This document shows positions 16,172-59,298 of a stretch of DNA of 64,000 nt, in pieces. The notes below the pieces were generated by a model that did not search any database, had not been told where the DNA came from, and was given only the letters and a program-made list of their open reading frames with translations. Position numbers and translations under genes: made by a program. Numbering within the stretch: the first letter of the stretch is position 1; each line of letters begins with the position of its first letter. Origin of the DNA: a virus; IMG/VR virus record IMGVR_UViG_3300003690_000002, positions 64,001 through 128,000 of that record, one strand, 5' to 3'.

Positions 16172-17843
16172 TGTCTACATATTCTCTAGCTTTTAAAAAT
16201 TGTTCTAATGGCATGGCGCCAAAACTAACAGGATTTCCATCTTTGTCATTTAAAACTTTTGTAGCATCATCAAGCTCTAAAACATAATTATGAAAAGAAT
16301 CATCACAAATAGGATCTCCGAAATTATCAAATGAAATTCCAAAATGTTTTTGCAGATTCGGTCGCACAACATTCCACATCGCTGTGCCAGGATAAGCAGT
16401 CGCTGTAAACATTTTCTGATTCACTGCCAGTGTTGCTAGTTCATATTCTGAGGTTCCTTGCGTTAACCCTTCGCGCCAAAAGTCGCGCTGCCATAAAATA
16501 AATGCAACGCTTGTCTTAAGATGTTGCAATTCTTCACCTGGATACCCCATAATCCAAGTACAGTTTGGATGTATATTAGTAGATTTACAGTTTTTAATTG
16601 CATTGACCATGGTAGTTGGAAATTGATAAGTATTTCCATTTATAACAGTGGGCGTTGAGCCATTTTTGAGAATAAAGCCGCCCTTGTTCATATTTTTCAG
16701 TGTATGTTCGCTAGCTGATTCTGCACCAAAACCAATATATACACATCCCGATGCTGACATATCAACCAATCTTTCATCAGCTTCATCCATGCGAGTGTGA
16801 GTACCCCATCTGATTTGATCAAGATCATAATTTTTAAAAACAGAAACCATACGTTTAATGCGTCTTTTATCAACTGCAAAGTTATCATCTGGAAAACCGA
16901 TAAAATCTAAATTATATTTATCAACATAATTTCTTATCTGTTTTGCTATGTGCTCACAAGAACGCATTCCATAATTTCTTTCTCCTTGCGCGCCACGATA
17001 GCAAAATGCACATGCATATGGGCATCCTCTGCTGCTTACTGTTGTTAAACTTCTTTTCATAGAAAAGGAAGTAGCAGAGCTATTATTTGCAGCCAAGCCC
17101 CAAACTGGTACTTTGATATAATCTTCTAAGACGTTATAACCATAAGGATCAGATTCTAATAAATCTAAAGCAGCATATGGTAAAGAATCTAGATTCATAG
17201 GTCTATTACCTTCATATATAAATCGATGTTTATCATTAAACTCGCCTCTATAAAATGGACTTAGTTTTGTAGATTTTATAGCCCGACTAATTCCCAATTC
17301 TTTAATAACTTTAGAATCATGCATTATTAATAAAATAATATCATCTCCCTCTGAACGCCCAACAGCATCAAGTTCAGGAATCCACTCGAAAAGACCGCCA
17401 CTAATTTCGGTTGCCAGTCCATTTCCGGATACTAAAAAAGTATCAGGTTGGTGTTTTCTTATTATTTTTGCGATTTTCTCTTGCCATCGGAGTGTTGTTA
17501 TTTTACCTGAAAATGCAATGACATCTTGATCCCCAACATTATTCAAGTGACGTATAATCATTTTCTCAGCTTCATCATAAGTTAAATGTCTACCATTAAT
17601 AAGATTTTGTTTCTTGGCTAAATCGTCATTAACACGATAAGCATTTAAATCAATTATGTAAGCTTCGGCTCCATATTGTCTAGCAATTGCAGCAAGAATA
17701 CCTGGTCCTTCTGGGGGCACGTTCGGCTTAGCTGATTCTCTCAATGGCATATTAATAAACGTTATTTTCAACCCCTTAAAAGCATCATAAGAAATATTCT
17801 TTATCAATTCATAAGGGTGTGGTGATTTAATTCTTATTTTCAT
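16140..17843 (-). CDS. cobalamin-binding radical SAM enzyme
   Basis: SSRGCPYACAFC (CxxxCxxC), DDNF, FGAESAS, preceded by a B12-binding-like N-terminal domain. Confidence 0.85.
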   Translation of the reverse strand: MKIRIKSPHPYELIKNISYDAFKGLKITFINMPLRESAKPNVPPEGPGILAAIARQYGAEAYIIDLNAYRVNDDLAKKQNLINGRHLTYDEAEKMIIRHLNNVGDQDVIAFSGKITTLRWQEKIAKIIRKHQPDTFLVSGNGLATEISGGLFEWIPELDAVGRSEGDDIILLIMHDSKVIKELGISRAIKSTKLSPFYRGEFNDKHRFIYEGNRPMNLDSLPYAALDLLESDPYGYNVLEDYIKVPVWGLAANNSSATSFSMKRSLTTVSSRGCPYACAFCYRGAQGERNYGMRSCEHIAKQIRNYVDKYNLDFIGFPDDNFAVDKRRIKRMVSVFKNYDLDQIRWGTHTRMDEADERLVDMSASGCVYIGFGAESASEHTLKNMNKGGFILKNGSTPTVINGNTYQFPTTMVNAIKNCKSTNIHPNCTWIMGYPGEELQHLKTSVAFILWQRDFWREGLTQGTSEYELATLAVNQKMFTATAYPGTAMWNVVRPNLQKHFGISFDNFGDPICDDSFHNYVLELDDATKVLNDKDGNPVSFGAMPLEQFLKAREYVDSDQIEKVLEM

Positions 17844-17869
17844 TGTAAAAACCTAATGTAATTATAACT

Positions 17870-18514
17870 TTAAAATCTACAGACTTTAAGATTTTTTAAT
17901 CCGGGATCAAAAGAAGAGTAAGTAAAATAATGAAATAAAATTTCCGGAAATAAAGATGTTATTGTCTTATGAGAATTTTTTATCTTATTTGAAACTATCT
18001 CATCTTGAGGATCCGCCTCATTATGTCCTAAAAAATATTCTGTTTCGTAAAAATCAATTCCAATTACATATATTTCATCTGCTTTTAATTCTAGGGCGGC
18101 ATGCAATAAAGCCATATCAGAGGAATTTTCAACAATATTCATATATTTCTCTAGAGAATCTGAATGATAATTATACGGTATCTTATACAGGCTTTCGAAA
18201 TTGCGTCCTTTGTATCCAGTTCTCCACCAATTTGTATTTCCATCTGGTCGCAATCTGGCTATGTAGACTTCTTGGACATTAAAATTATTTACAAAATCAT
18301 GATCCAAGCCTGACTCACAAATATTAACTTGTTGAATTATTTTTTTATTTTTTAAAAAATTATGTATTTTTTGATTTTCTTTAACAAATAAATTAAATTC
18401 ATTTATTAATATTACATGATCAAAATCAATATCTAAATTTGAATGATCTATGCGCTCTAGTGAGTTACCCCTGCCGCATATTAATATCTTTATTTTTTCA
18501 GCTGTTTTTTCCAT
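17870..18514 (-). CDS. Cst-II/GT42-like sialyltransferase (or Maf-like nonulosonate transferase)
   Basis: ILICGRGNSLERIDHSNLDIDFD and ELKADEIYVIGIDFY resemble Campylobacter Cst motifs IAGNGPSLKEIDYSRL and KEIYLSGIDFY (recalled, not aligned). Confidence 0.55.
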   Translation of the reverse strand: MEKTAEKIKILICGRGNSLERIDHSNLDIDFDHVILINEFNLFVKENQKIHNFLKNKKIIQQVNICESGLDHDFVNNFNVQEVYIARLRPDGNTNWWRTGYKGRNFESLYKIPYNYHSDSLEKYMNIVENSSDMALLHAALELKADEIYVIGIDFYETEYFLGHNEADPQDEIVSNKIKNSHKTITSLFPEILFHYFTYSSFDPGLKNLKVCRF

Positions 18515-36959: not shown

Positions 36960-36984
36960 TATTTTCTCCGCATTATATTTTAAG

Positions 36985-37366
36985 TGGAGGCGCTGGGAGT
37001 CGAACCCAGGTCCAAAAGACTGCAAAAACACGATCATTCACAAAAATAGACGCATTCACCACCGAAGCGTCAACCACCTGATATTCCTATCAGGGAATCC
37101 ATTTACCAACTTAAAGGTGTTGACTACCGGAATATATAGTCATAAAAATGGCTAAATACCTACTACGCCCACCACCAATTTTTCTAAAAATTGGAAACGG
37201 CTAATATTTCTTTAGAAAGCTATTAACAACTTCCGATTATGCCGCCATGGCATAATCAAATTCAACGTTATCGTTGGCATTTATAAAAGTCAAGTATTTT
37301 TACTGTGTTACTTACACAGTTTTGCACGTTGTTTTATTCGTATTTTGTCGAAACCGTTTCGCCCCC
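36985..37366 (-). ncRNA. ssrA: tmRNA, tag peptide ANDNVEFDYAMAA*
   Basis: 5' GGGGGCG pairs with 3' CGCCTCC-A, including G3:U70. 5' motif GAAACGGTTTCGAC, T-arm GGGTTCGACTCCC. Tag ORF 37278-37237 ends in AA. CCA is not encoded. Confidence 0.95.
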
Positions 37367-45983: not shown

Positions 45984-47825
45984 CTACGGACCCTCCTCAC
46001 CACAAGCAGTTTCATTTAAAATCTCTGAGAGATATGCATATATTTCTGTTGCTGAGTTTGTTAGTTCATACCATTTTCCTAGCGCACTGGTTAAAGAAAG
46101 AGGTTCCCAACCACCTGCTTTACCAAGAAAATTATATGTTTTATAATATAATGAAGTAAATGTATAGATTGATAGTTTAGGATCTTGTTTAATCAAGTCT
46201 AATAAAATAGGTTGAGTAATATAACCATTGCCATATGCTGTCTTCCCGTTGATCGGGGCTATCGTGGGAGAATTCATATAGCTTTGTCCCTCTTCATCTG
46301 TAAAAACAATTATAACGTGATTCGCATTGGGTCGCCAACTTACCGAGAAATTTTGGAGATCAGGAACCGAGTCAACCCAAGGAATCCATTGAAGATCGGA
46401 TATTTGATAAGGCATTGAAGTTTGCGGTACAATTCCTTTCATAAGAAGATATATCATATCATAAAGCATTTCATAACCACCCTGTGTTTGAAAACCAGTA
46501 CTGGCAATTGTATTATAAAAAATATCAAAAGGCTCTAGATCAGAAACAAGAAGCGCTTTTTCACCCCACCCCAGATTATATGTGGGAGCGTATATAAAAC
46601 CCCATTTAACAGCAGATTGATCAGCGAATTCTTGTGAAAAAATGCTTAGTGCCGCTAAAACACCACTAATTTCATCTTCCATTGAACCAGAGCCGTCGAC
46701 AACAAAAATTATATCAGTATCTTGCATTTCTTTGCCATCGTCAATTAATCCATCACAATTATCATCTTGACCATTGCAAGCGTCTTTATCGTCTGGCGTT
46801 TTTTCATCGAGGCATAAATTTGGAATGAAATCATTATTACCGTCGTAGTTACCCCAATACCCGGCATCACAGATCATTTCACCAGGTAGACATATTCCAA
46901 TATTGAGAGTATCTATCGGACCGGTATAACACTCCTGAGCTAAACCCTCATCGATTAATTGGTTGCAGTTTTCATCATGATTGTTGCAAACTTCATTTTG
47001 TATGATCTGTCCAACTAGCGGATCGCACGGATTTGGTCCCGCTGTGGGGATATATGTACATAAAGCTTGGCAAGGTGACATTTGGAGCGCTTTACATTCC
47101 TCAGTAACACATTCGCACGTTTTAAAGCCTTGTCCGCACAAAAGAGGAGGTTCCTCACAAGGATATAAAACGCCAATTTGATCCCAAGTACATAAACATA
47201 GTAATTCTTCGTCAACTAACCCATCGCAATCATCGTCTTGACCATTACATACCTCCTCCTCGGGCTGTTGCGCAGTACAAAACCAACTACCATCTACACA
47301 TACGTTTAAATTTTCTTCACACGCCGTATTGCATTTTTCTATTAATCCTTCGTCTATTTTGCCATTACAATCATTGTCAAATCCGTCGCAAACTTCATCT
47401 GGGATGGGTCCGCATACATTACATGCATTTAATTGTCCCTCATCAACTAAGTCATCGCAATCATTATCAACATAATCGCAAACTTCCTCTGCTGGCTGTG
47501 GTGCATCACATGCCACAACCTTTCCTTCAACACAAAGACCATTCCCATCTCCGCATTCTGTACTACAAGGGTACTCGCCTTCATCTGTGGCACCATCACA
47601 GTCATTATCGATACCATCGCAGATTTCTTCTACGCAAGGATCACATATGCCGTATTCAAAATAACCTTTAAGGCAATAAACCTTTACAAAGCCATTAATT
47701 CCGTCTTCTGTGACACATTCTTCTTCTCTAATGACTTCATTGGTGGGAATACACTCTAAAATTTCTTCACATTCACTCATTTCGATAACTTTGTCATCAT
47801 CACAAATATCTACAATTACTTTCAT
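45984..47825 (-). CDS. vWA-domain protein with six Cys/Asp-rich putative metal-binding (MopE-like) repeats; C-terminal part of a frame-split gene
   Basis: Six EE[IV]C[DN]..D[ND]DCDG..DE repeats, MIDAS VVDGSGSM, VFTDE. The frame stays open upstream to 47861 (YYYCPPLNEVWR). Confidence 0.85.
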   Translation of the reverse strand: MKVIVDICDDDKVIEMSECEEILECIPTNEVIREEECVTEDGINGFVKVYCLKGYFEYGICDPCVEEICDGIDNDCDGATDEGEYPCSTECGDGNGLCVEGKVVACDAPQPAEEVCDYVDNDCDDLVDEGQLNACNVCGPIPDEVCDGFDNDCNGKIDEGLIEKCNTACEENLNVCVDGSWFCTAQQPEEEVCNGQDDDCDGLVDEELLCLCTWDQIGVLYPCEEPPLLCGQGFKTCECVTEECKALQMSPCQALCTYIPTAGPNPCDPLVGQIIQNEVCNNHDENCNQLIDEGLAQECYTGPIDTLNIGICLPGEMICDAGYWGNYDGNNDFIPNLCLDEKTPDDKDACNGQDDNCDGLIDDGKEMQDTDIIFVVDGSGSMEDEISGVLAALSIFSQEFADQSAVKWGFIYAPTYNLGWGEKALLVSDLEPFDIFYNTIASTGFQTQGGYEMLYDMIYLLMKGIVPQTSMPYQISDLQWIPWVDSVPDLQNFSVSWRPNANHVIIVFTDEEGQSYMNSPTIAPINGKTAYGNGYITQPILLDLIKQDPKLSIYTFTSLYYKTYNFLGKAGGWEPLSLTSALGKWYELTNSATEIYAYLSEILNETACGEEGP

Positions 47826-48087: not shown

Positions 48088-48429
48088 TTATGTTCTTTTT
48101 GGTATTGTAGTGAATTTTACGCCTAAAATTCTATCTCCCTCTTCATCTTTAATCTTTAATATTTTTGATCTTAAATAATCTCTATATGTGGCTATTGGTA
48201 TGTTTTTTGGCATGAATCTAACAGTTAAAACTGTTATTTTTTGAGTTGGACCGGTCTTTCTCGTCGCTGCCTCTGATTTGACAATTGTAACCCCATCAAT
48301 TGCCCTTATTTTGTTAAAAACGCTTGCATATAATGCCAAATCTTTAGAATATTTTATTAATATCTCTATTTCAAAGTGTTTTTCTTCCTCAAAGAGGTAT
48401 TTCTGCCAATTTTCAAATAATTTTTCCAA
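48088..48429 (-). CDS. ENW-leader protein 1, hypothetical
   Basis: TTG start; MEKLFENWQKYLFEE. Confidence 0.7.
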   Translation of the reverse strand: MEKLFENWQKYLFEEEKHFEIEILIKYSKDLALYASVFNKIRAIDGVTIVKSEAATRKTGPTQKITVLTVRFMPKNIPIATYRDYLRSKILKIKDEEGDRILGVKFTTIPKRT

Positions 48430-48440
48430 AATAATTGTTC

Positions 48441-48653
48441 TTAAAGGTCAATTATGACCACTCCATCTGTTTTTTCATCTTTTTTTTCTTGTGTGGGTGG
48501 GATTTGTAAGTTTTCTAACATTGGAAGTCGTAAAAAATCTTGTTCTTGATCAATATTCTGCTTTTCTTGTTCTTCTTGCTCTTTTTTGATCAAAATATTG
48601 ATTAAATTTAGATCATTTATATCAATATCCCATATTTTTGGATTAAATGGCAT
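48441..48653 (-). CDS. hypothetical protein
   Basis: 70 aa; ACTAATTA motif upstream. Confidence 0.6.
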   Translation of the reverse strand: MPFNPKIWDIDINDLNLINILIKKEQEEQEKQNIDQEQDFLRLPMLENLQIPPTQEKKDEKTDGVVIIDL

Positions 48654-48715
48654 TTCTATTACTCCTATATTAGTAATTAGTACCAGTTACTTGTCATATG
48701 TTCTTTTTATTGAAT

Positions 48716-49411
48716 TTATGTTCCTTGAAATCCCGGAGGGGCTGTTTTTGAGCGCTCGTAAGAAGGTTTTTTAATATATGGAGGATTTTTTGACCTATTT
48801 CCACCCATGCCAATATTTTTTTTCTTTGATTTTTCGTGCCCTTTCTTAACTGAAGCTTGATAATCTTCATCTAATTCTTGCAAAGCTAAATGTATTGCTT
48901 TTTTTTGATCGGGGAGAAGACCTCTAAATCCGTCTATCTCATGAATATCTACCCATTCATATTCTAAATTCTCTTCTAAATCAAGATCTATTGCCCCGGA
49001 ATACCTGTCTGTTTTGAAATAAGCTACATTTTTATGTTTTTTAACAAGCTCTAATTGACTAATTTCCAAATTTGTTTCTTCTTTAACCTCTCTTTTGCCA
49101 CCTGTTGCTACATTTTCACCTTTTTTAACATGACCTCCGGGGAGATCCCAATCATGATTCTTGTCAGCACGCTTTAAAAGTAAAAATTGCTTCTTCTCAT
49201 TAAAAATAATAACTTTTGAGACCTCATTTGTATCACCACCCTCCTCTGGAAATCTAGTTTCAGAATCAGGCACAGAAGAAGCATCAGCATATTGCCAAGA
49301 CTCTTCTCCCGAGCCTCCATATTTTAATGGATCCCTATATTTCCAGTTTCCTGTGGACTCTGGCTGTTCTTTTATGTATTTTCGCCAACTCTCAATCAAT
49401 AATTTCATCAT
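48716..49411 (-). CDS. ENW-leader Nudix hydrolase
   Basis: Leader MKLLIESWRKYIKE; Nudix box WDLPGGHVKKGENVATGGKREVKEETNL. Confidence 0.9.
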   Translation of the reverse strand: MMKLLIESWRKYIKEQPESTGNWKYRDPLKYGGSGEESWQYADASSVPDSETRFPEEGGDTNEVSKVIIFNEKKQFLLLKRADKNHDWDLPGGHVKKGENVATGGKREVKEETNLEISQLELVKKHKNVAYFKTDRYSGAIDLDLEENLEYEWVDIHEIDGFRGLLPDQKKAIHLALQELDEDYQASVKKGHEKSKKKNIGMGGNRSKNPPYIKKPSYERSKTAPPGFQGT

Positions 49412-49435
49412 ATTTTTTCCTCACTAAAACCAATA

Positions 49436-49609
49436 TTAGGGTTTAAAAAACCCCCAGTCACCATTAGCTCTATACATCTCATCCCAGAGCATATCTTCAA
49501 CCTCTTTTATATGATCTTCATTGAGGAAATCTTTCATCTCGGCTAAATTGTCAAATGCTTCAGTAATATTTAATTTACCTTTTTCATATTCAATACAAAT
49601 CAAACACAT
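49436..49609 (-). CDS. small hypothetical protein (MCLIC...), 57 aa, not in the ORF track
   Basis: Manual translation MCLICIEYEKGKLNITEAFDNL...; GAGGAGAG SD upstream. Confidence 0.65.
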   Translation of the reverse strand: MCLICIEYEKGKLNITEAFDNLAEMKDFLNEDHIKEVEDMLWDEMYRANGDWGFFKP

Positions 49610-49637
49610 TATAACTCTCCTCTTTGTTTATAAATAG

Positions 49638-49838
49638 TTATTTGTTTTTCATATCTCTTATCAATCTATTAAAGCGTTTATCTTGGCTTTTCAATGCGCG
49701 GACTTGACCATTGAGAAAAGAAATTTCCAGTTCAAGACTGTTTAATCTAGATTCCATTGTATAATAAAGACCCGCCATCACACAAGTTGTTGTAATAATT
49801 AAAATAAGTGTTTTAAAATCGATTTTTAGTTTATCCAT
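49638..49838 (-). CDS. membrane-anchored coiled-coil hypothetical protein
   Basis: One hydrophobic helix followed by heptads. Confidence 0.65.
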   Translation of the reverse strand: MDKLKIDFKTLILIITTTCVMAGLYYTMESRLNSLELEISFLNGQVRALKSQDKRFNRLIRDMKNK

Positions 49839-49843
49839 TAACC

Positions 49844-50431
49844 TTATATCCCCTCATATAAATCAACGTATTCTTCCCAATCTTCTTCCGGGTCAAACGG
49901 TTTAACATCCGGCTCTGTTATTTCAGGCTTTTCAGGTGTTTTTTCAATAATTTTATTAGAAAATTGTTGCAAAGTTGACATATTTTGCTTAAAAAACACG
50001 AAAAAGAAGGGATTTTCATCACCTTCGTACTTAAATTCCTCTTTTTTTTCTTTAAATACCCCAAATTTATTATTTTTTGGTATAAATTTTTTCCAAACTC
50101 GAACTGCATCTGGGCTAGTTTCGTAGCTATCTGGTGAAAGACCTTTTTCTCCTGCCAATTCTAGAGCCATTAAGTACATGATTGTACCCACCCTTTCGCT
50201 ATTCTTGGGAGAAGATGACCACGATACTTCCCAATTAGGTACATCTATGCGTTTTTCAATAGAAATATAGGCATTTGTACCACTTTTTTTACTTGCTACT
50301 GGTTCTTTTGTGCTTATATCAAGTATATTTATGGTTATATCTTTTGAAGATTTTGTGATGTGATAAAAAAAATCATATGGGCTCTTATTCATATTTCTAT
50401 ATTCTCGCCAATTTTCAAGTAGGAGTTTCAT
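49844..50431 (-). CDS. ENW-leader protein, possible GNAT-like fold
   Basis: Leader MKLLLENWREY; ERVGTIMYLMALE...GLSPDSYETSPDAVRVWKKF resembles phage GNAT-like domains. Confidence 0.6.
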   Translation of the reverse strand: MKLLLENWREYRNMNKSPYDFFYHITKSSKDITINILDISTKEPVASKKSGTNAYISIEKRIDVPNWEVSWSSSPKNSERVGTIMYLMALELAGEKGLSPDSYETSPDAVRVWKKFIPKNNKFGVFKEKKEEFKYEGDENPFFFVFFKQNMSTLQQFSNKIIEKTPEKPEITEPDVKPFDPEEDWEEYVDLYEGI

Positions 50432-50637
50432 TTATTTTCTCTCTTAATAGTATGTTTATTCCACTTTTGTAATTTTTTAATTAAATTCTCAAGGTTCCAT
50501 TTTCTTGGAACACAACACATTGGGAAAATAGCATGCAATAAAAAAACAATACCTCTAAATATTAAAACTAAACCAACTTTGCTAGCAAAAATTAAATGGC
50601 TCAAATAAGTTTCATTATTTTTCTTAAAATGATTCAT
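50428..50637 (-). CDS. DUF6356-like small membrane protein
   Basis: NHFKKNNETYLSHLIFA...LLHAIFP. Confidence 0.7.
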   Translation of the reverse strand: MNHFKKNNETYLSHLIFASKVGLVLIFRGIVFLLHAIFPMCCVPRKWNLENLIKKLQKWNKHTIKRENK

Positions 50638-51266
50638 ACTTTAACTAGTTCTTTTTTTTCAAGGTCTAGTTTGTATCCAATTATTTCAGGATCAACTTCA
50701 CCTACGTTAAAAAAATCAAAACCAGGCAATATTGCTATTTTTTGTTCTGGAAAGGATCCTCTTTTTATAAAATAGCTAGCTTGACCTATAACTTCTGTAA
50801 ACAATGCTCCTGCGGCTTTAGGAGGGACCGTTTTCATATGTCCATTATATGCTGCTATTTCTCCTTGTAATGTAAAATCTGCACCTCTTTGACAGTGTGT
50901 CATGTAATCGTGTACTGCTCGTGTTTTTAAATTAAACTCGGGCTCAAATATAGGATGCTCCGTCCCGCCAGTCCAAATTTTTAAAACGCCATTTTGTGCG
51001 GCATCAGCGCACATTTCTTTCTCAGATGGGTAAGGATCTTCTTCTACAAACTGAACATCTACTCTAGATTGGATTCTTTGAAACATTTTATTGACAAATG
51101 GCTCTAGAGCTTCAAAAGAAGAAACTGCAGTGGGGTCAAACTCCGGAGCATTTTCATACGCTTGTGTAACTAATTCTCCATAAAGATCCCAACCATTTGG
51201 ACCAGGCTTAAGCATTAATTTTTCTGTTAATATAAATTCTCGCCAATTTTCAAGTAAAAGTTTCAT
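50634..51266 (-). CDS. ENW-leader protein with RAVHDxxxH motif
   Basis: Start moved to MKLLLENWREFILTE (ATGA overlap); RAVHDYMTH...GE...H. Confidence 0.75.
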   Translation of the reverse strand: MKLLLENWREFILTEKLMLKPGPNGWDLYGELVTQAYENAPEFDPTAVSSFEALEPFVNKMFQRIQSRVDVQFVEEDPYPSEKEMCADAAQNGVLKIWTGGTEHPIFEPEFNLKTRAVHDYMTHCQRGADFTLQGEIAAYNGHMKTVPPKAAGALFTEVIGQASYFIKRGSFPEQKIAILPGFDFFNVGEVDPEIIGYKLDLEKKELVKV

Positions 51267-51802
51267 GCCTGTACCCCCATAGGTGCACCGCCCCACAAAT
51301 ATCGAAATTTAAGAGAGGGTTTGTACGGATCGCCGTCGTCAATATAAACGCTGATATTCGTCACCGGGATCTCCTCGCCCTTTTTAAAAGCCACCTCCGA
51401 TTCATCATAAAACATTTTAGGTTCTTCACCAGCTGCCTGCGGATCGTAACCAAAATCTTCTGCAACCATTGCTGAGAGAATGACATGGAGTGTTTTCCCG
51501 CGATTTTTAGCGCCCCACGGGCTTGCAAAACTCACGGCAACCCTTCGGTCAAGAGTCCAAGAAATTCCAATGCCTCGATCAACCGCCTGGGCAAGTAGAA
51601 TCCGTGCGGCTTCTGGTGCGCTTAAGCCTGCGGGTTTGTCCCGAGCAATCTTTCTAATTTGAGATGCCAAAGTTGCAGAAGGCATATCCAATGCCATGCC
51701 TCTATATATTTTTCGCATTTTCTTGGGGCGGGATGGCTCTGATTGTTCTAGCAAGTACTCTCGCCAATTTTCAAGTAGGAGTTTGATTGCTAATCCTCCC
51801 AT
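51263..51802 (-). CDS. ENW-leader ADP-ribosyltransferase (R-S-E clade)
   Basis: IYRGM, GISWT, DESEV. The leader begins at ATC 51787 or at the upstream ATG 51802. Confidence 0.7.
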   Translation of the reverse strand: MGGLAIKLLLENWREYLLEQSEPSRPKKMRKIYRGMALDMPSATLASQIRKIARDKPAGLSAPEAARILLAQAVDRGIGISWTLDRRVAVSFASPWGAKNRGKTLHVILSAMVAEDFGYDPQAAGEEPKMFYDESEVAFKKGEEIPVTNISVYIDDGDPYKPSLKFRYLWGGAPMGVQA

Positions 51803-52200
51803 TGTGCTGGTTCTCTATGGCGCGTTAAATCAGTTACTACATTCTTGATGCGATTATGATAATCCTTTAAAGATTGTTCACCATATCGATATGGATCGAT
51901 ATAATCTTGTAATGCCACCTCTTTTGTTTTATATTTAAAATCATCAGAATTGCCGCTGTAAATATACATTGTTTTTAAAATACTATTAATTTCATTTTTA
52001 TCTTCTGTGGTTTTAAGTTTATCAAAAAAATCTAATAGTGTATTTGTCTGGTGAATGTTTTTGGATGGGTTCTTAATGATATCTAACTTTGTGATTTGTG
52101 AAAAAGTTTTTCCAATATCCCATGGTTCATCTTTAGGAGGAGGAAAAGAATCAATTCGTTCGTTTAAATATCGCCGCCAATTTTCAAGTAGGAGTTTCAT
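51790..52200 (-). CDS. ENW-leader hypothetical protein
   Basis: MKLLLENWRRYLNE. Confidence 0.75.
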   Translation of the reverse strand: MKLLLENWRRYLNERIDSFPPPKDEPWDIGKTFSQITKLDIIKNPSKNIHQTNTLLDFFDKLKTTEDKNEINSILKTMYIYSGNSDDFKYKTKEVALQDYIDPYRYGEQSLKDYHNRIKNVVTDLTRHREPAQWED

Positions 52201-52205
52201 ATTAT

Positions 52206-52213
52206 TAATTAGT
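52206..52213 (-). promoter_or_regulatory. putative phage late-promoter octamer ACTA[TAG]TTA (representative copy)
   Basis: Also found just upstream of starts at 33370, 38722, 45481, 48674, 49631, 56406, 56646 and 59328. Confidence 0.5.
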
Positions 52214-52238
52214 TCAAATATATTGAATTCTTCTTATA

Positions 52239-52559
52239 TTAGACCGCGAAGGAAGAACCACAGCCGCAGGTGCGGGTCGCGTTGGGGTTCTCGAAATGGA
52301 AGCCGGAGAACTTAAAGGACTCGATGTAGTCGATGGTCGTGCCATCCAGATATTGGTGGCTCATGGGATCGACGTACACCTTCAAGCCATCACGCTCAAT
52401 GACTGAATCGCCCGCATTCTCTTGGTTTTCCAGATCCATATCGTAGGTGAACCCGGAGCATCCACCGCCGACGACCATCAGCCGAAGACCATAGCCTTCC
52501 AACCCTTGCTGATTGGCTAATTCTTGTACTTTTTTAATTGCTTTTACTGTAATGTTCAT
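52239..52559 (-). CDS. iscA: A-type Fe-S carrier protein (IscA/SufA/ErpA, HesB family)
   Basis: GGGCSG...Y, VDPMS..YLDG..IDY, F.NPNA..TCGCGSSF. Confidence 0.95.
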   Translation of the reverse strand: MNITVKAIKKVQELANQQGLEGYGLRLMVVGGGCSGFTYDMDLENQENAGDSVIERDGLKVYVDPMSHQYLDGTTIDYIESFKFSGFHFENPNATRTCGCGSSFAV

Positions 52560-52592
52560 TTAAATATCTCTACTAGTTTTTAAGTATATGTT

Positions 52593-53039
52593 TTACTGTG
52601 GGACTTCTTCTACTATGCCCTTTATATTAATCCCGCTCAAAGGTTCAAAACTTTCTTCTGGTATTTTATTGGAATGGAAAGGTTTTCCACCTCCTTCGCG
52701 ATTTACAGCAACCGTGACGTGAGGAAAAGATATCTTTTTACTAATCTCACCAGGAGCTTGGACCTTTACTGCCATAGCACGTTCATCTCGCCCCACGGCA
52801 ATAACTGATAATGTGATTTCAGATCCCAAAGGGTAATCTTTTGAAAAATCATGTTTGCCTTTGGGGTGAACTAGCGAAGCAAAAGGAGCAATTGTCATAT
52901 GATGTACAACCGGCTCCCAGCCTTCAGGGATATCTAATTCTAGAAGCTTATTACGCGATTCTTCATCTAATACTACACCGGAATAAGCAATTGCTTCGGT
53001 TAATGTATACTGTCGCCAATTTTCAAATAAAAGTTTCAC
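52593..53039 (-). CDS. ENW-leader 2H phosphoesterase
   Basis: GTG start, MKLLFENWRQY; two HxT motifs HHMTI and PHVTV. Confidence 0.75.
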   Translation of the reverse strand: MKLLFENWRQYTLTEAIAYSGVVLDEESRNKLLELDIPEGWEPVVHHMTIAPFASLVHPKGKHDFSKDYPLGSEITLSVIAVGRDERAMAVKVQAPGEISKKISFPHVTVAVNREGGGKPFHSNKIPEESFEPLSGINIKGIVEEVPQ

Positions 53040-53965
53040 TATTGTCTCCTCGTTTTTTTATAAACATCGTATACTTCTTTACTCGATTCTGTGCCTTTTT
53101 TAGCTAGGGATTTACCATAATCCAAGGTTTGCTGCAAATTACCTTCCCACTTAATAGTTACTTCACGGTACCAAGCTTCTGTACGAGCGCCAATATCAAT
53201 CCACCGGTCAAGTAATTCTACTCTGTCTCTTTCCGGAAGATCTTTCGCAAAATCTTCACCTCGGACCACATCTTTAAGCCCATCATATAAGACATTTAAA
53301 CCTTTATCGATCCCTTCCTTAGAGTTCATAAAATCATGTTTACCTTTTGCTTGGTGTAAATCGTCAATGCTGGCTAATAGTTTATATAAATGAGTGGGAG
53401 TTTTACCCTTCTCTTGACGTATATCAATAATGTCGACCAATTGTCCTTTCATTCCATCGACAATATTATCAGATACAGGCTTACCGCCGTAAGTAAGCTT
53501 CGCTTGGGCTTCGTTCTCAAATAGTACAGCAAAAGCAATATAAAAAGCAACTACAGTTAGCGTCATAGTCGCGACTTTACATACTGTGGGGTGGCTGCCG
53601 CAAAATCCTTGTACCTTCCTAATTAACCATCCTATTGATTTTAATGCTGCCATACCTGCCCTTCTAGCCAAGTCGACAAGCTGTACGGATTTTTCTAAAA
53701 TCCAATCATTTATCTTTTCCCACCCTTTCTGCAACAAGCCTGAACGTTCAGATGGAGGCTTATAATCAGGATCTGCTGTTAATTCGGCTTCTTTTTCCCA
53801 ATCTATTCCTATTTCTTCATTTAGAGAATTAAGTTCGAATAGTACAATATCTTGCCATCTTTCAATTAATTGATTATCAGAAATCAATCGTTTATCATGT
53901 TGTTCGCATATTAATTGAAATGGATTATCATTATATTTTCGCCAGTTTTCAAGTATGAGTTTCAT
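53039..53965 (-). CDS. ENW-leader hypothetical protein with one hydrophobic helix
   Basis: MKLILENWRKY; VATMTLTVVAFYIAFAVLF segment. Confidence 0.75.
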   Translation of the reverse strand: MKLILENWRKYNDNPFQLICEQHDKRLISDNQLIERWQDIVLFELNSLNEEIGIDWEKEAELTADPDYKPPSERSGLLQKGWEKINDWILEKSVQLVDLARRAGMAALKSIGWLIRKVQGFCGSHPTVCKVATMTLTVVAFYIAFAVLFENEAQAKLTYGGKPVSDNIVDGMKGQLVDIIDIRQEKGKTPTHLYKLLASIDDLHQAKGKHDFMNSKEGIDKGLNVLYDGLKDVVRGEDFAKDLPERDRVELLDRWIDIGARTEAWYREVTIKWEGNLQQTLDYGKSLAKKGTESSKEVYDVYKKTRRQ

Positions 53966-53980
53966 TTAATCCTCCTTAAG

Positions 53981-54748
53981 TCAAAGTGCTTCATTTATAT
54001 ATTCTTGTGGTTCAAGTTCAATCTTCGCGTGGGGATATCTGCTCATTAAATAATATCTCCATAATTCTCTAATTCTTCTTACTAGTGGGGTCAATTCTTC
54101 TTCTGCATATCCATAATTTAATCCAGTGTAATAAATTTCATTAATTATGTTATCAAGAAGCTCTCCAATTGGTTGTTTTTCTGTTTTTGCTCTTTTATAA
54201 ACTCCTGCGACGTGTCCTTTTACTTCAGATTCGCTTGTATAATAATCTTTAGCGGTTTGTAAAGTTTTCCATATTTCTTTGTCAGGAATCTTTTCGTAAA
54301 CTTTTTTAAGCATTTCAGTTGGCTGTCCGCTATGTTCTAACTCGTGGCGTAACGTTTCTTTGAGTTTTGGAATTAATTCTGAAAAATCTTTATTGGTATA
54401 AAGTTGTGGGAACTCAATATTAACATATACATCTGATAATTGTCGATCCTCTTCTGGTGCGTCTAAAATCCAATCATAGCTTCCATGTACAATAATACTG
54501 TGATCGTCTTCTAAATCAGATATTTTAACATTAACAATTATATCTCTAACCCATTTCAAATCTTCTAGCAGATCTGCTACTAGTGTAAATGTGGCTTCTC
54601 CGTTACTTTCAATATATGATCTTAGATCTTCATCTTTGAGCGCTTTAATAATTTCTCTTGAAAAATCAGTTGCATAACGATCTAAGCGTCGACCAGTAGT
54701 CCCAGCTTCATTTATAAATGTACGCCAATTTTCAAGTAGGAGTTTCAT
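53981..54748 (-). CDS. ENW-leader HExxH metallopeptidase-like protein
   Basis: MKLLLENWRTFINE; LRHELEHSGQ...ESEV.GH. Confidence 0.7.
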   Translation of the reverse strand: MKLLLENWRTFINEAGTTGRRLDRYATDFSREIIKALKDEDLRSYIESNGEATFTLVADLLEDLKWVRDIIVNVKISDLEDDHSIIVHGSYDWILDAPEEDRQLSDVYVNIEFPQLYTNKDFSELIPKLKETLRHELEHSGQPTEMLKKVYEKIPDKEIWKTLQTAKDYYTSESEVKGHVAGVYKRAKTEKQPIGELLDNIINEIYYTGLNYGYAEEELTPLVRRIRELWRYYLMSRYPHAKIELEPQEYINEAL

Positions 54749-54972
54749 TTCTTTAGTAACTCCTCAATATCATTCATTATTTGTTCAAGTTTTTCAATCT
54801 TTTCTACGGGGATTGACGCCATATTATAGTGTATGTCTGCTAATTTTTGTCCTAGCGCATCTTCAAGTTGAATAACATATTGTAAATTATCTTCACTGAT
54901 TTTTGGGCGATGAGGAAATTGTATAACTTCACCTTCAAGAAGTTTTCGCCAATGTTCCAGTAAAAGTTTCAT
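54745..54972 (-). CDS. ENW-leader small protein
   Basis: MKLLLEHWRKLLE. Confidence 0.7.
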   Translation of the reverse strand: MKLLLEHWRKLLEGEVIQFPHRPKISEDNLQYVIQLEDALGQKLADIHYNMASIPVEKIEKLEQIMNDIEELLKK

Positions 54973-54982
54973 TTAGTATTCC

Positions 54983-55765
54983 TTATACTATGTTATTTCC
55001 ATTAATTGACATCATTTTATCATAAGATAATATTCTTAAGCTCGATAATTTTTGAAGATAATCGTTTCTTCTTAGGACTTTGAATGCTAAGTTTTCAACT
55101 GAGAATGCTCCTCTCGTCTCTAACCCACACTGTCTAAATTTCCTTATTTTTTCCCTAAGCTGTTCTGAAGCGTTTAATGCTAACTTGTACTCTTTGTTAG
55201 AAAACATCTCATAGACTTCATCTATATCTTCCATTAATCTTGCAGCTTTTTTCTTAACATTTATATAATCAATCTTTGGGTTTTCTTTTGAGGGCTCTGT
55301 TACCCATCCATTATCAATTATTGAATATACTCCTGTTGAGTGATGTGGTTCACCTGAGTTTTGTACGTATAGTTCTACTTCAAATCCTTTTATTTTTATA
55401 TTGTGATTTTTATTCCATATACTTGAGCTTTTTCTTAAAAAATCTCCAACTAATTCAAAATTTTCATCAACTTCTTTATAATCAATTATAATATGTAAAT
55501 CTATATCTGAATATTTAGACCAAGTATAGTTTGCTAAAGACCCCGTAATTGTAATATCTAAAATTTTAACCCAATGCAGCCCAAGGCTTTCAAAAAAATC
55601 ATTTGCTACTTTATAAAGTTTATTTTTTATTTTTGATTTTAATTTGCCTCTTTCCCACACATCTGAATTAAGCTCATCTTGTATCTCAAAGCTTGAAACG
55701 TCAACGGATTCTGGATTGACTAATTCTTCAAGGTAAATCTCCCAATTTTCAAAGAGTTTTCGCAT
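54983..55765 (-). CDS. ENW-leader pol-beta-superfamily nucleotidyltransferase
   Basis: MRKLFENWEIYLEE; ITGSLANY...SDIDLH (GS..DxD), EVELY. Confidence 0.85.
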   Translation of the reverse strand: MRKLFENWEIYLEELVNPESVDVSSFEIQDELNSDVWERGKLKSKIKNKLYKVANDFFESLGLHWVKILDITITGSLANYTWSKYSDIDLHIIIDYKEVDENFELVGDFLRKSSSIWNKNHNIKIKGFEVELYVQNSGEPHHSTGVYSIIDNGWVTEPSKENPKIDYINVKKKAARLMEDIDEVYEMFSNKEYKLALNASEQLREKIRKFRQCGLETRGAFSVENLAFKVLRRNDYLQKLSSLRILSYDKMMSINGNNIV

Positions 55766-56393
55766 ATTTTAATTCCTCTAGCTCTTCAATTGTTTTATTA
55801 ACAGATGTATGTAATATTGCAATTCCGCCGACCTTTTCCCATGGAACTGTGTTTATTGTGAAGTCATCAATTAGCACATTAGGTTTTTCATCTGCAATTG
55901 CCCATTTATATTTTTCGTGCGACATAAATATTTTTTTTGGTTCTGGGTGAAGATTGTTTTTAATCCAAATTTCTTTTCCTCTTTTTGATCCTTCACCTTT
56001 CATCGGTGCTGTTAAAATATAAGGATCGAATTTGCTTATATAAGACCATAATTCTTTTCCGCCTTCAGCCCAGGGGAGATTTGCCCAAAAATCTTCATTA
56101 TCTTCAAGTCGTTTATACATATATTTTCTTGCAGCCTGTAATCTATTCTCTTTATCCATTTTATCTAAATCTTGCGGAGTAACTGAATCGCGTCCAAGTT
56201 TAGAAAGTACGTGCCTTAATTTCTCCATTTTTTTGTCAGTAATGTTTTTATCTTTTAAATCTAAATTTATTTGTTCAAGTGCGCCAGTTTCAAAATCTAC
56301 CAACACTCCATCCATGTCGCAATAAATTTGATATGGAAAACTTTCATTTCCTTCTTGTAAATAATTTTGCCAATTTTTTAAATATTTTTCCAT
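55749..56393 (-). CDS. ENW-leader HAD 5'(3')-deoxyribonucleotidase-like protein
   Basis: MEKYLKNWQNYLQE; YCDMDGVLVDF, ILTAP, GK..W, LIDD. Confidence 0.85.
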   Translation of the reverse strand: MEKYLKNWQNYLQEGNESFPYQIYCDMDGVLVDFETGALEQINLDLKDKNITDKKMEKLRHVLSKLGRDSVTPQDLDKMDKENRLQAARKYMYKRLEDNEDFWANLPWAEGGKELWSYISKFDPYILTAPMKGEGSKRGKEIWIKNNLHPEPKKIFMSHEKYKWAIADEKPNVLIDDFTINTVPWEKVGGIAILHTSVNKTIEELEELKYAKTL

Positions 56394-56678: not shown

Positions 56679-56891
56679 TTATAGATTATAGAAAGATTCA
56701 TTCATATGTCCACATGACGAGCAGTGGAATAGTTGAACAGGTACCATCATTTCTTGACCAGTGGGGGAGATTAGCGCAGACAATTTTTTAATAGCATATA
56801 CTTGTTTAAAAAATAAGCAGCCACACTCTTCACATGTGGCATCTTCAGCATCGTTTAAATTAATATTTAAATTTTGATTATCTTGATTCAT
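56679..56891 (-). CDS. zinc-ribbon protein
   Basis: CEECG...CSSCGH; start moved to 56891. Confidence 0.75.
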   Translation of the reverse strand: MNQDNQNLNINLNDAEDATCEECGCLFFKQVYAIKKLSALISPTGQEMMVPVQLFHCSSCGHMNESFYNL

Positions 56892-57201
56892 CTTCACTAA
56901 CTCTACTTGGGTCACTATCATTAAGTTTTCTAATAGCATGTCTAAGCAGTTCTTTTGCCAACTTGCTTGGATCTACTTCAGGCGAAGTGTGATCTATGCT
57001 ATCTTGTGCTAATCGTAGTGCTAACTCTCTTAATTCCTCTGCCGCTCCCTCATGGGCTTTGGATAATTCTTTTTGATACAACGCAGAGGCGAAATCTGTT
57101 TGTGGGGGGTTTTTAAAATAACTAAACTTATCATCATTATAGTCTAATTCGACAAGGCTTTCTTGAATTAGATTTTTTAATTGATTTCGTGTAAGTTTCA
57201 T
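56878..57201 (-). CDS. MKLT-leader hypothetical protein
   Basis: MKLTRNQLKNLIQE. Confidence 0.7.
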   Translation of the reverse strand: MKLTRNQLKNLIQESLVELDYNDDKFSYFKNPPQTDFASALYQKELSKAHEGAAEELRELALRLAQDSIDHTSPEVDPSKLAKELLRHAIRKLNDSDPSRVSEDESR

Positions 57202-58774: not shown

Positions 58775-59029
58775 CTACGTCGTACGCCGTAGATCTACGT
58801 CGTATTCTTCAAATTTAGCGATCCAACGTAATGCGGATTCCAACTTTTCCGAAGGCTTATTACCTGGTAAACTAGACGTTGCAAGAAAATCCCACAATTC
58901 GTAATAAGCCTCGCTATGTTGCGTTTGCTCCTCATCTGAAAAAGGCTCTGCTGCAAGATCTTCCTCGTTAACATATTTTTGTACTTCTTCTTTAATAATA
59001 TGTCTTAAATTTAATTTAGTTAACTTCAT
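58775..59029 (-). CDS. MKLT-leader hypothetical protein
   Basis: Start moved to MKLTKLNLRHIIKEE (TAATG overlap). Confidence 0.7.
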   Translation of the reverse strand: MKLTKLNLRHIIKEEVQKYVNEEDLAAEPFSDEEQTQHSEAYYELWDFLATSSLPGNKPSEKLESALRWIAKFEEYDVDLRRTT

Positions 59030-59298
59030 TAGATTTCCTCTACAGAAGTTCCGGAAAGATCTTCCTCTTCCGGATATCCGGCTTGTTCTTTTTTCCACTC
59101 CTTAACATACATTTCGAAATTTTCTGTTAAAAATCGTTTACCTACGGGTGGCATTACCTTATACAGTTTATCCGCGCTCGTCATCACTTGTCTCATCTCA
59201 GTAATCCACCATTGCTCACCCCTTGGCTTATCGGGATCAATGGCTTCTTCCAAAGTTTCTTTAATGAGTTGTTTAAGTCTAGATTTGGTTAGTTTCAT
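59029..59298 (-). CDS. MKLT-leader hypothetical protein
   Basis: MKLTKSRLKQLIKE. Confidence 0.75.
   Translation of the reverse strand: MKLTKSRLKQLIKETLEEAIDPDKPRGEQWWITEMRQVMTSADKLYKVMPPVGKRFLTENFEMYVKEWKKEQAGYPEEEDLSGTSVEEI

Follow-up and report, generated by a model that had tools for sequence, protein, structure and literature searches.

In a 64-kb stretch of DNA from an uncultured marine phage of far-T4 type (IMG/VR record IMGVR_UViG_3300003690_000002, bases 64001-128000; hereafter, the window), twelve open reading frames (ORFs) of the minus strand between positions 48088 and 56393 begin with versions of one 14-residue leader, MKLLLENWRxY[LI]xE, and continue into proteins that are unrelated to each other. 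We call this sequence leader 1; a second leader, leader 2, is found on other genes of the same genome. Judged by its sequence features, leader 1, and probably leader 2 as well, is on balance likely to be a portable capsid-targeting propeptide of the kind represented in T4 by the capsid-targeting sequence (CTS). The record is a complete genome of 186,398 bp with direct terminal repeats and a G+C content of 35.7%; positions are given in window coordinates unless marked as genome coordinates.

Leader 1 as a conserved and portable peptide

All twelve leader-bearing ORFs reported in a preliminary description of this DNA were found, with the starts given there. The [IL]-x-E ending that had been ascribed to ten of the leaders was seen, at residues 11-15, in 10 of the 12. 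Bit scores quoted below for leader 1 refer to a hidden Markov model (HMM) built solely from leaders of other contigs. The ORFs are as follows.

48088-48429 (minus): 113 aa, TTG start, leader MEKLFENWQKYLFE; leader HMM 13.5 bits
48716-49411 (minus): 230-231 aa, leader (M)MKLLIESWRKYIKE; Nudix hydrolase cargo, PF00293, E=9e-18
49844-50431 (minus): 195 aa, leader MKLLLENWREYRNM, lacking [IL]xE; GNAT-like cargo, a lead only
50634-51266 (minus): 210 aa, leader MKLLLENWREFILTE; phrog_3170 domain
51263-51802 (minus): 174-179 aa; ART-like cargo, a weak lead
51790-52200 (minus): 136 aa, leader MKLLLENWRRYLNE
52593-53039 (minus): 148 aa, GTG start, leader (M)KLLFENWRQYTLTE; 2H phosphoesterase-like (HHMT, PHVT)
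53039-53965 (minus): 308 aa, leader MKLILENWRKYNDN, lacking [IL]xE at 12-15; one predicted membrane-spanning stretch
53981-54748 (minus): 255 aa, leader MKLLLENWRTFINE; HExxH motif (HELEH); leader HMM 31.3 bits
54745-54972 (minus): 75 aa, leader MKLLLEHWRKLLEGE
54983-55765 (minus): 260 aa, diverged leader MRKLFENWEIYLEE; pol-beta-type nucleotidyltransferase, PF01909, 23.4 bits, phrog_36119, E=7e-40
55749-56393 (minus): 214 aa, most diverged leader MEKYLKNWQNYLQE; HAD 5'-3' deoxyribonucleotidase, phrog_2643, E=4e-21

The leader of the ORF 51263-51802 starts with the codon ATC (51787), preceded by a good Shine-Dalgarno sequence, GGGAGGA. The sole ATG available to this ORF, at 51802, is located five codons upstream, inside the preceding gene, and would prepend MGGLA to the leader; the ATC is either a rare start codon or the mark of a decaying copy. 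The cluster is only partly tagged: an IscA/HesB-type Fe-S assembly protein in its middle (52239-52559, minus; PF01521, E=1e-21) has no leader.

Scanning the whole genome with the leader HMM, a check proposed in the preliminary description, produced 14 N-terminal matches with E<0.01, two weaker ones and none other; the genome has ∼16 copies of leader 1. Four of the copies are outside the cluster and past the window's end, at window coordinates 75547 (a guanylate-kinase-like protein with the variant leader MQPLLEAWRKYLKE), 83280 (a 922-aa protein), 83894 and 84118.

We scanned IMG/VR with a degenerate DNA pattern for leader residues 1-9. At least 119 stretches matched, and leader 1 is present in at least 118 marine viral contigs, the majority of them 20-50% fragments of phages of ∼180-205 kb. 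The matches listed contained 249 unique leader-1 proteins. Residues 10-14 lay outside the search pattern and so give an unbiased measure of conservation: [YF]11 was found in 91% of the 249 proteins, [LIV]12 in 88% and E14 in 80%, while position 15 falls to background. The motif [LIVM]-x-E occupied residues 12-14 in 197 proteins and residues 13-15 in 21 more (218 of 249 in total). All six codons are used at each of Leu3, Leu4 and Arg9, and codon usage at residues 10-14 is ordinary; therefore, the peptide is under selection. Conservation at the DNA level alone, which the preliminary description had named as evidence against its own reading, was tested for in this way and is not what we observed; the amino-acid constraint is clear.

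A strict DNA pattern had 1-5 copies in each of five complete relatives, with the source genome among the richest; as a rough figure, leader genes make up a tenth of all genes in such phages. Among the matches listed, all seven genuine leader-1 records that were ≥90% complete carried the S77 protease. An eighth such record (G039/L084), apparently without the protease, was rejected: its match is out of frame and due to chance, in an unrelated phage of high G+C content.

What follows the leader varies widely, as the preliminary description had claimed for the cluster. Family matches confirmed its Nudix (Pfam), nucleotidyltransferase (NTP_transf_2) and deoxyribonucleotidase (PHROG) assignments. 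The proposed 2H phosphoesterase gains support from its two HxT motifs and from 35% identity to a representative of one of the cargo families covered by a scan in which tRNA_lig_CPD matched two members (which ones is not listed). For the proposed HExxH protein the support is the motif itself, and the GNAT-like and ART assignments are weak leads. The phrog_3170 domain also occurs in gp205 of Rhodococcus phage E3, annotated as a structural protein. Among the matches listed, 207 complete leader-1 proteins were sorted into at least 105 cargo families, of which 68 had a single member; the proteins range from 66 to 919 aa across differing Pfam families. Pfam names a minority of the cargo: protein kinases, tRNA-ligase CPD (2H), polyA/CCA polymerase, Zeta-toxin kinase, RNase T, DUF192, PGDYG, GNAT, nucleotidyltransferase, a papain-like toxin domain and HAD_SAK_1.

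The same cargo families could be seen bearing leader 1, leader 2, a short leader (MKYTWNRFLTE of a Nudix group) or no leader at all; the nucleotidases of phages HTVC008M and immuto exemplify this, as does the CPPATQDLELNTKNR family. This variation within families indicates that the tag is an add-on and that the two leaders are interchangeable. In HAD cargo, the leader stops 2-8 residues ahead of the first strand of the fold.

Leader 2, head genes and the prohead protease

Leader 2, MKLTKxKLKQIIKE(EL), counts 14 residues to E14 and was found on 12-13 further ORFs, bringing the tagged genes of the genome to ∼29. Both leaders have hydrophobic residues at positions 8, 11 and 12 and Glu at 14. Three of the leader-2 ORFs are located in the window:

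56878-57201 (minus): 107 aa, leader MKLTRNQLKNLIQE; leader-2 HMM 19.6 bits
58775-59029 (minus): 84 aa, leader MKLTKLNLRHIIKEE
59029-59298 (minus): 89 aa, leader MKLTKSRLKQLIKE; leader-2 HMM 28 bits

Others are located at genome positions 141780-144047 and 16921-17532. The one at 16921-17532 (203 aa) comes directly after the protease gene, in the head module. Leader-2-like segments were also seen at the C-termini of two head-module proteins of relatives (330 aa in L134, 182 aa in L133).

The protease in question is a Peptidase_S77 (gp21-type) prohead protease encoded at genome positions 17536-18144 (112.6 bits; phrog_207, E=7e-54). Other T4-type head genes of the genome code for a Gp23-family capsid protein, portal and large terminase. 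The closest isolates, Flavobacterium phage immuto, Rhodothermus RM378 and Microcystis Mel-JY01, are distant; the capsid protein is 49% identical to that of immuto across about two thirds of its length.

In T4, the first ten residues of internal protein IPIII are enough for packaging; residues 4 and 7 of the CTS drive targeting, and residues 8 and 10 drive processing (PMC9026906). W8, [YF]11, [LI]12 and E14 of leader 1 fall in register with, and chemically resemble, Y4, F7, I8 and E10 of the T4 sequence MKTYQEFIAE. The short Nudix leader is nearly of T4 CTS length, and the widespread group that carries it keeps only the second half, WNxFLTE.

Sites of similar form are present in the head proteins of the source phage. 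The experimentally known site LTE/A of T4 gp23 (the slash marks the cut) aligns with LRE/AS of its capsid protein. The putative scaffold has LLE-6, IKE-37 and LLE-44, with I35-K36-E37, L5-E6 and L43-E44 invariant; the protease has two conserved motifs, the invariant L6-x-E8 and LTE-24. The LIE-9 motif of gp21 was proposed to be a CTS-like propeptide (PMC9026906), and the N-terminus of the source phage's protease parallels it. From these motifs, the S77 protease of the source phage probably keeps L-x-E specificity.

We compared 16 head modules with variable slots beside the protease gene. At least 5 of the 16 had leader genes in the protease-adjacent slot: leader 2 in the source genome (E=1e-6), L131 and L134, and leader 1 in L126 and L133 (E about 0.007). 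The slots of L127, L128 and L129 held weaker leader look-alikes. Nearly all of roughly a dozen extra slot ORFs begin with a leader or a look-alike. Taking leader genes as a tenth of genes, we roughly estimated the chance of at least five among about thirteen slot ORFs as ∼0.006. The idea that the slot holds one conserved core protein with swapped leaders was rejected, as the slot proteins are non-homologous beyond the leader. Two leader-2 proteins beside the protease gene, L131:8104 (299 aa) and L134:6455 (330 aa), are 45% identical and have a common IMDGHHRW motif, which by eye we take to be ParB/sulfiredoxin-like; by this motif, they would be nuclease-like candidates for head cargo.

By-eye likenesses to the leader, which serve as leads only, were seen in T4 gp21 (QLLIETW), in the phage's own protease (KLLKEYYEL) and in its capsid protein (ALLDKWEQTGLLEG); the leader HMMs gave no significant match to the capsid protein, protease or scaffold of the source phage. 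A predicted complex of the putative scaffold, the protease and the 40 N-terminal residues of leader-1 proteins scored 0.00 with controls not run, and speaks neither for nor against binding.

Weighing the readings

A number of observations weigh against capsid targeting. Two of the 12 leaders in the cluster, at 50431 (YRNM) and 53965 (YNDN), lack [IL]-x-E. The register match to the T4 CTS is one of pattern only, and amphipathic helices in general share part of that pattern; leader-1 and leader-2 HMMs had no significant match in the T4 head-gene region (a scan that did not include the ip genes). T4 internal proteins IPI-III are small, basic and DNA-associated, whereas the predicted mature cargo (61-905 aa) is mostly acidic, with isoelectric points of 4.3-6.3, and largely enzymatic; the cargo at 53965 holds a membrane-type segment. 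Guanylate kinase, deoxynucleoside monophosphate nucleotidase and Nudix cargo are ordinary nucleotide enzymes, seemingly of the replication phase, with no evident need for injection. The cluster is situated in an early-gene-like region behind sigma-70-like promoter candidates; one at 56685-56712 (minus), TGGACA-16-TATAAT, upstream of the leader-1 cluster, is a consensus match only. The T4 late promoter TATAAATA occurs 13 times on the coding strand of the genome versus 15.5 expected, which gives no late-promoter signal. Leader 1 was not seen at gene N-termini in the stretches (∼20 kb) inspected in immuto and HTVC008M. The HAD protein, the commonest leader-1 cargo and the only one so tested, had zero matches as a query among 50,697 phage records, and the DNA of the leader-1 cluster matched nothing in that collection.

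The constraint on the first 27 nucleotides (nt) of leader 1 as DNA, which are near-invariant, counts on the same side. At leader codons 3, 4, 5 and 9, CTC, CTA, CTT and CGA account for 58, 67, 95 and 55%, compared with 9, 13, 25 and 15% outside the leader in these genes. Moreover, orphan mini-ORFs (ATGAAACTCCTACTTGAAAATTGGCGAGG.., i.e. MKLLLENWRG[ILM]-stop) reuse the 27 nt without any cargo, at L033:2166, L035:5884, L041:3536, L052, L082, L086:4779, L090 and L101 (offsets on the hit strand). In four gene contexts the stop of a 10-11-codon mini-ORF abuts the start codon of an untagged next gene, for which CGAGGA serves as the Shine-Dalgarno sequence; the fifth context, L082, has a mini-ORF of 16 codons whose TGGAGG fills this role at an overlapping start. 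Even where the downstream orthologue has diverged, the 27 nt remain identical. Given the codon bias and the cargo-free mini-ORFs, part of the leader conservation acts on DNA or RNA. We read the identity of the 27 nt as homogenisation by recombination overlying a peptide function, possibly along with a role in translation initiation. A hairpin in which CUCCU would sequester the ribosome-binding site was rejected as a general feature: Shine-Dalgarno/CUCCU pairing showed only a modest excess (2.4 versus 1.2 expected pairs) and was not present in all leaders.

One could propose that the conserved unit is mainly nucleic acid, a 27-nt junction for recombinational shuffling, a strong translation-initiation module or both, with the peptide largely a by-product. 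The biased codons, the 27 nt unchanged beside diverged orthologues, their reuse in mini-ORFs that supply Shine-Dalgarno sequences and the weak pairing excess would all fit such a proposal. It leaves aside that conservation of residues 10-14 is at the amino-acid level, with ordinary codons, and that Leu3, Leu4 and Arg9 use all six codons; also, the short-leader Nudix group keeps only the peptide-level half WNxFLTE, and leader 2 has no codon bias of this kind. Identity in DNA can coexist with peptide function, since the CTS-coding sequences of T4 ipII and ipIII (MKTYQEFIAE) are identical in DNA too. We regard this explanation as improbable. Common descent of an ordinary N-terminal domain, or chance likeness with no common function, might be suggested by a motif so short and accompanied by nothing else; with 14 matches of E<0.01, all of them N-terminal and no other significant, on at least 105 unrelated cargo families of differing Pfam assignment and length, we find it scarcely credible.

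Another possibility, which we think unlikely though less so than a purely nucleic-acid unit, is that the leaders are docking or recognition tags for a partner other than the prohead: a modifying enzyme (as for ribosomally synthesized and post-translationally modified peptides), a hub of nucleotide metabolism or RNA repair, or a signal for timed degradation. The richness of the cargo in nucleotide and RNA enzymes (guanylate kinase, nucleotidases, Nudix, 2H/CPD, CCA/polyA polymerase, kinases), its acidity and the early-type region behind sigma-70-like promoters agree with such a role. Against it, leader 1 offers a modifying enzyme no Ser, Thr or Cys, and no single non-leader family was seen to accompany leader genes beyond ordinary synteny. 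The latter comes from clustering 2164 ORFs of 118 leader loci; widespread neighbour families were found, but the phages are related and synteny is inseparable from linkage. Moreover, a partner of this sort leaves the [LIV]-x-E end, the T4 CTS spacing and the protease-adjacent slot unexplained. Capsid targeting would account for these features, and it is the reading that we develop below.

Proposed mechanism and comparison with known systems

In the preliminary description, the cluster was read as a T4-CTS-like capsid-loading system. The protease, the conserved [LIV]-x-E, the CTS register and the genes adjacent to the protease speak for that reading, while docking, cleavage, packaging and injection are steps that we infer. 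The amphipathic N-terminal helix would dock the fused protein on the scaffolding core during prohead assembly; the S77 protease would cut after Glu14 of [LI]-x-E, and perhaps after E6 too, setting the mature enzyme free inside the head; when the next cell is infected, the enzyme would leave the head together with the DNA. Recombination at the first 27 leader nt, which are near-invariant, could bring further genes into the set.

One could speculate further, and we do so tentatively, about gene capture in two layers. The 27-nt DNA handle would recombine any gene behind the leader, and the peptide W-x-x-[YF]-[LI]-x-E would load the product into the prohead, where S77 would release it. The two leaders and the mini-ORFs would then form one system by which a marine clade of 180-205-kb phages delivers >100 fast-changing enzyme families (RNA repair, nucleotide metabolism, kinases and toxin-like proteins) to the host along with its DNA. 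We consider this wider scheme possible but doubtful.

The CTS had already been suggested as a means by which T4-like phages could load diverse proteins (PMC9026906, PMC3012670). Novel features are the leader sequences, the presence of two leader classes, the scale (∼29 tagged genes in the source genome, at least 105 cargo families) and the enzymatic nature of the cargo. In a literature search, the leader strings appeared in no relevant paper, neither a description of the tag nor virion proteomics was found, and the CTS papers found concern T4 and giant phages only.

The T4 CTS (of IPII and IPIII, with the related IPI propeptide, removed by gp21) shares much with leader 1: a short amphipathic N-terminal peptide on unrelated proteins, ending in [IL]-x-E; a spacing of aromatic (-6), aromatic (-3), aliphatic (-2) and Glu (0); an S77 protease in the phage; and leader DNA near-identical between paralogues. 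It differs in having 10 residues, whereas leader 1 has 14 with an extra conserved half, KLLLEN, and in its 3-4 tagged genes versus ∼16 (+13) in the source genome. The clade of the source phage, unlike T4, has two coexisting leader classes and its many cargo families; sequence homology between the two systems was undetected.

In the giant phages phiKZ, 201phi2-1 and SPN3US, dozens of head-internal proteins are cut after Glu by a gp21-related protease (PMC9026906, PMC5694885), which makes large cargo loads feasible. The source phage reuses one short leader. Giant-phage propeptides, in contrast, are long, are not known to share a single portable tag and show a different motif before Glu.

The term 'disassembled polyvalent protein', used in the preliminary description, holds as an analogy rather than as membership: some of the cargo resembles conflict effectors, but the genes are separate. 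Polyvalent proteins of phages and conjugative elements were reportedly described by Iyer, Burroughs, Anand, de Souza and Aravind in 2017. Nucleotidyltransferase, 2H, Zeta-toxin kinase, protein kinase and papain-like toxin domains and a metallopeptidase motif are common to them and to leader cargo. Polyvalent proteins are, however, single giant multi-domain chains, whereas each leader cargo is an ORF of its own (75-919 aa) in which no more than one domain is recognised, and many are plain metabolic enzymes.

Encapsulin cargo-loading peptides likewise are short and portable and send unrelated enzymes into an HK97-fold shell; they are usually C-terminal and uncleaved, and the shell contains no DNA and injects nothing. 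The mobile regulatory cassettes of T4-type phages known as PeSLs, said to have been described by Arbiol, Comeau and Krisch in 2010 as non-coding promoter and stem-loop units, resemble leader-1 DNA as short conserved sequences at gene 5' ends in hyperplastic regions that could promote modular shuffling by recombination. PeSLs are non-coding, whereas leader-1 DNA is coding, in frame and under peptide-level selection.

Several neighbouring features were noted in passing. Directly downstream of the leader cluster, a 613-aa protein (45984-47825, minus) has a weak vWA match and MopE-type Cys/Asp metal-binding repeats, the latter a possible clue to the host group. ARAGORN predicted a tmRNA gene at 36984-37366 (minus) with the tag peptide ANDNVEFDYAMAA. 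Within the head module, an ORF at genome positions 16236-16469 (minus; MAKRPINVEV...), which by eye we take to be ribosomal protein S21-like, is kept in this position in nearly all of 15 relatives examined. In immuto (L123, MW353176.1, 100812-119405), there are leader-2-like N-termini, MKKSQLRQIIKEAL and MKKSELVKLIKEEL, and a third common leader, ME(N)FDLKKFLVENKLT, on several hypothetical proteins; as a cultured distant relative, immuto is a possible experimental model for N-terminal tags.

Sequence otherwise gives little help in naming the proteins that uncultured phages inject. Should the tag act as it does in T4, sequence alone would name those that a large group of abundant uncultured marine phages deliver at the onset of infection. 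The T4 CTS would then be one case of a general, expandable address system, and the leaders would be another natural tag with which foreign proteins could be loaded into phage heads. Conservation of the leader's first 27 nt as DNA points to a route by which new cargo is recruited. Should the address be a different one, about one gene in ten in these phages would still share one fate.

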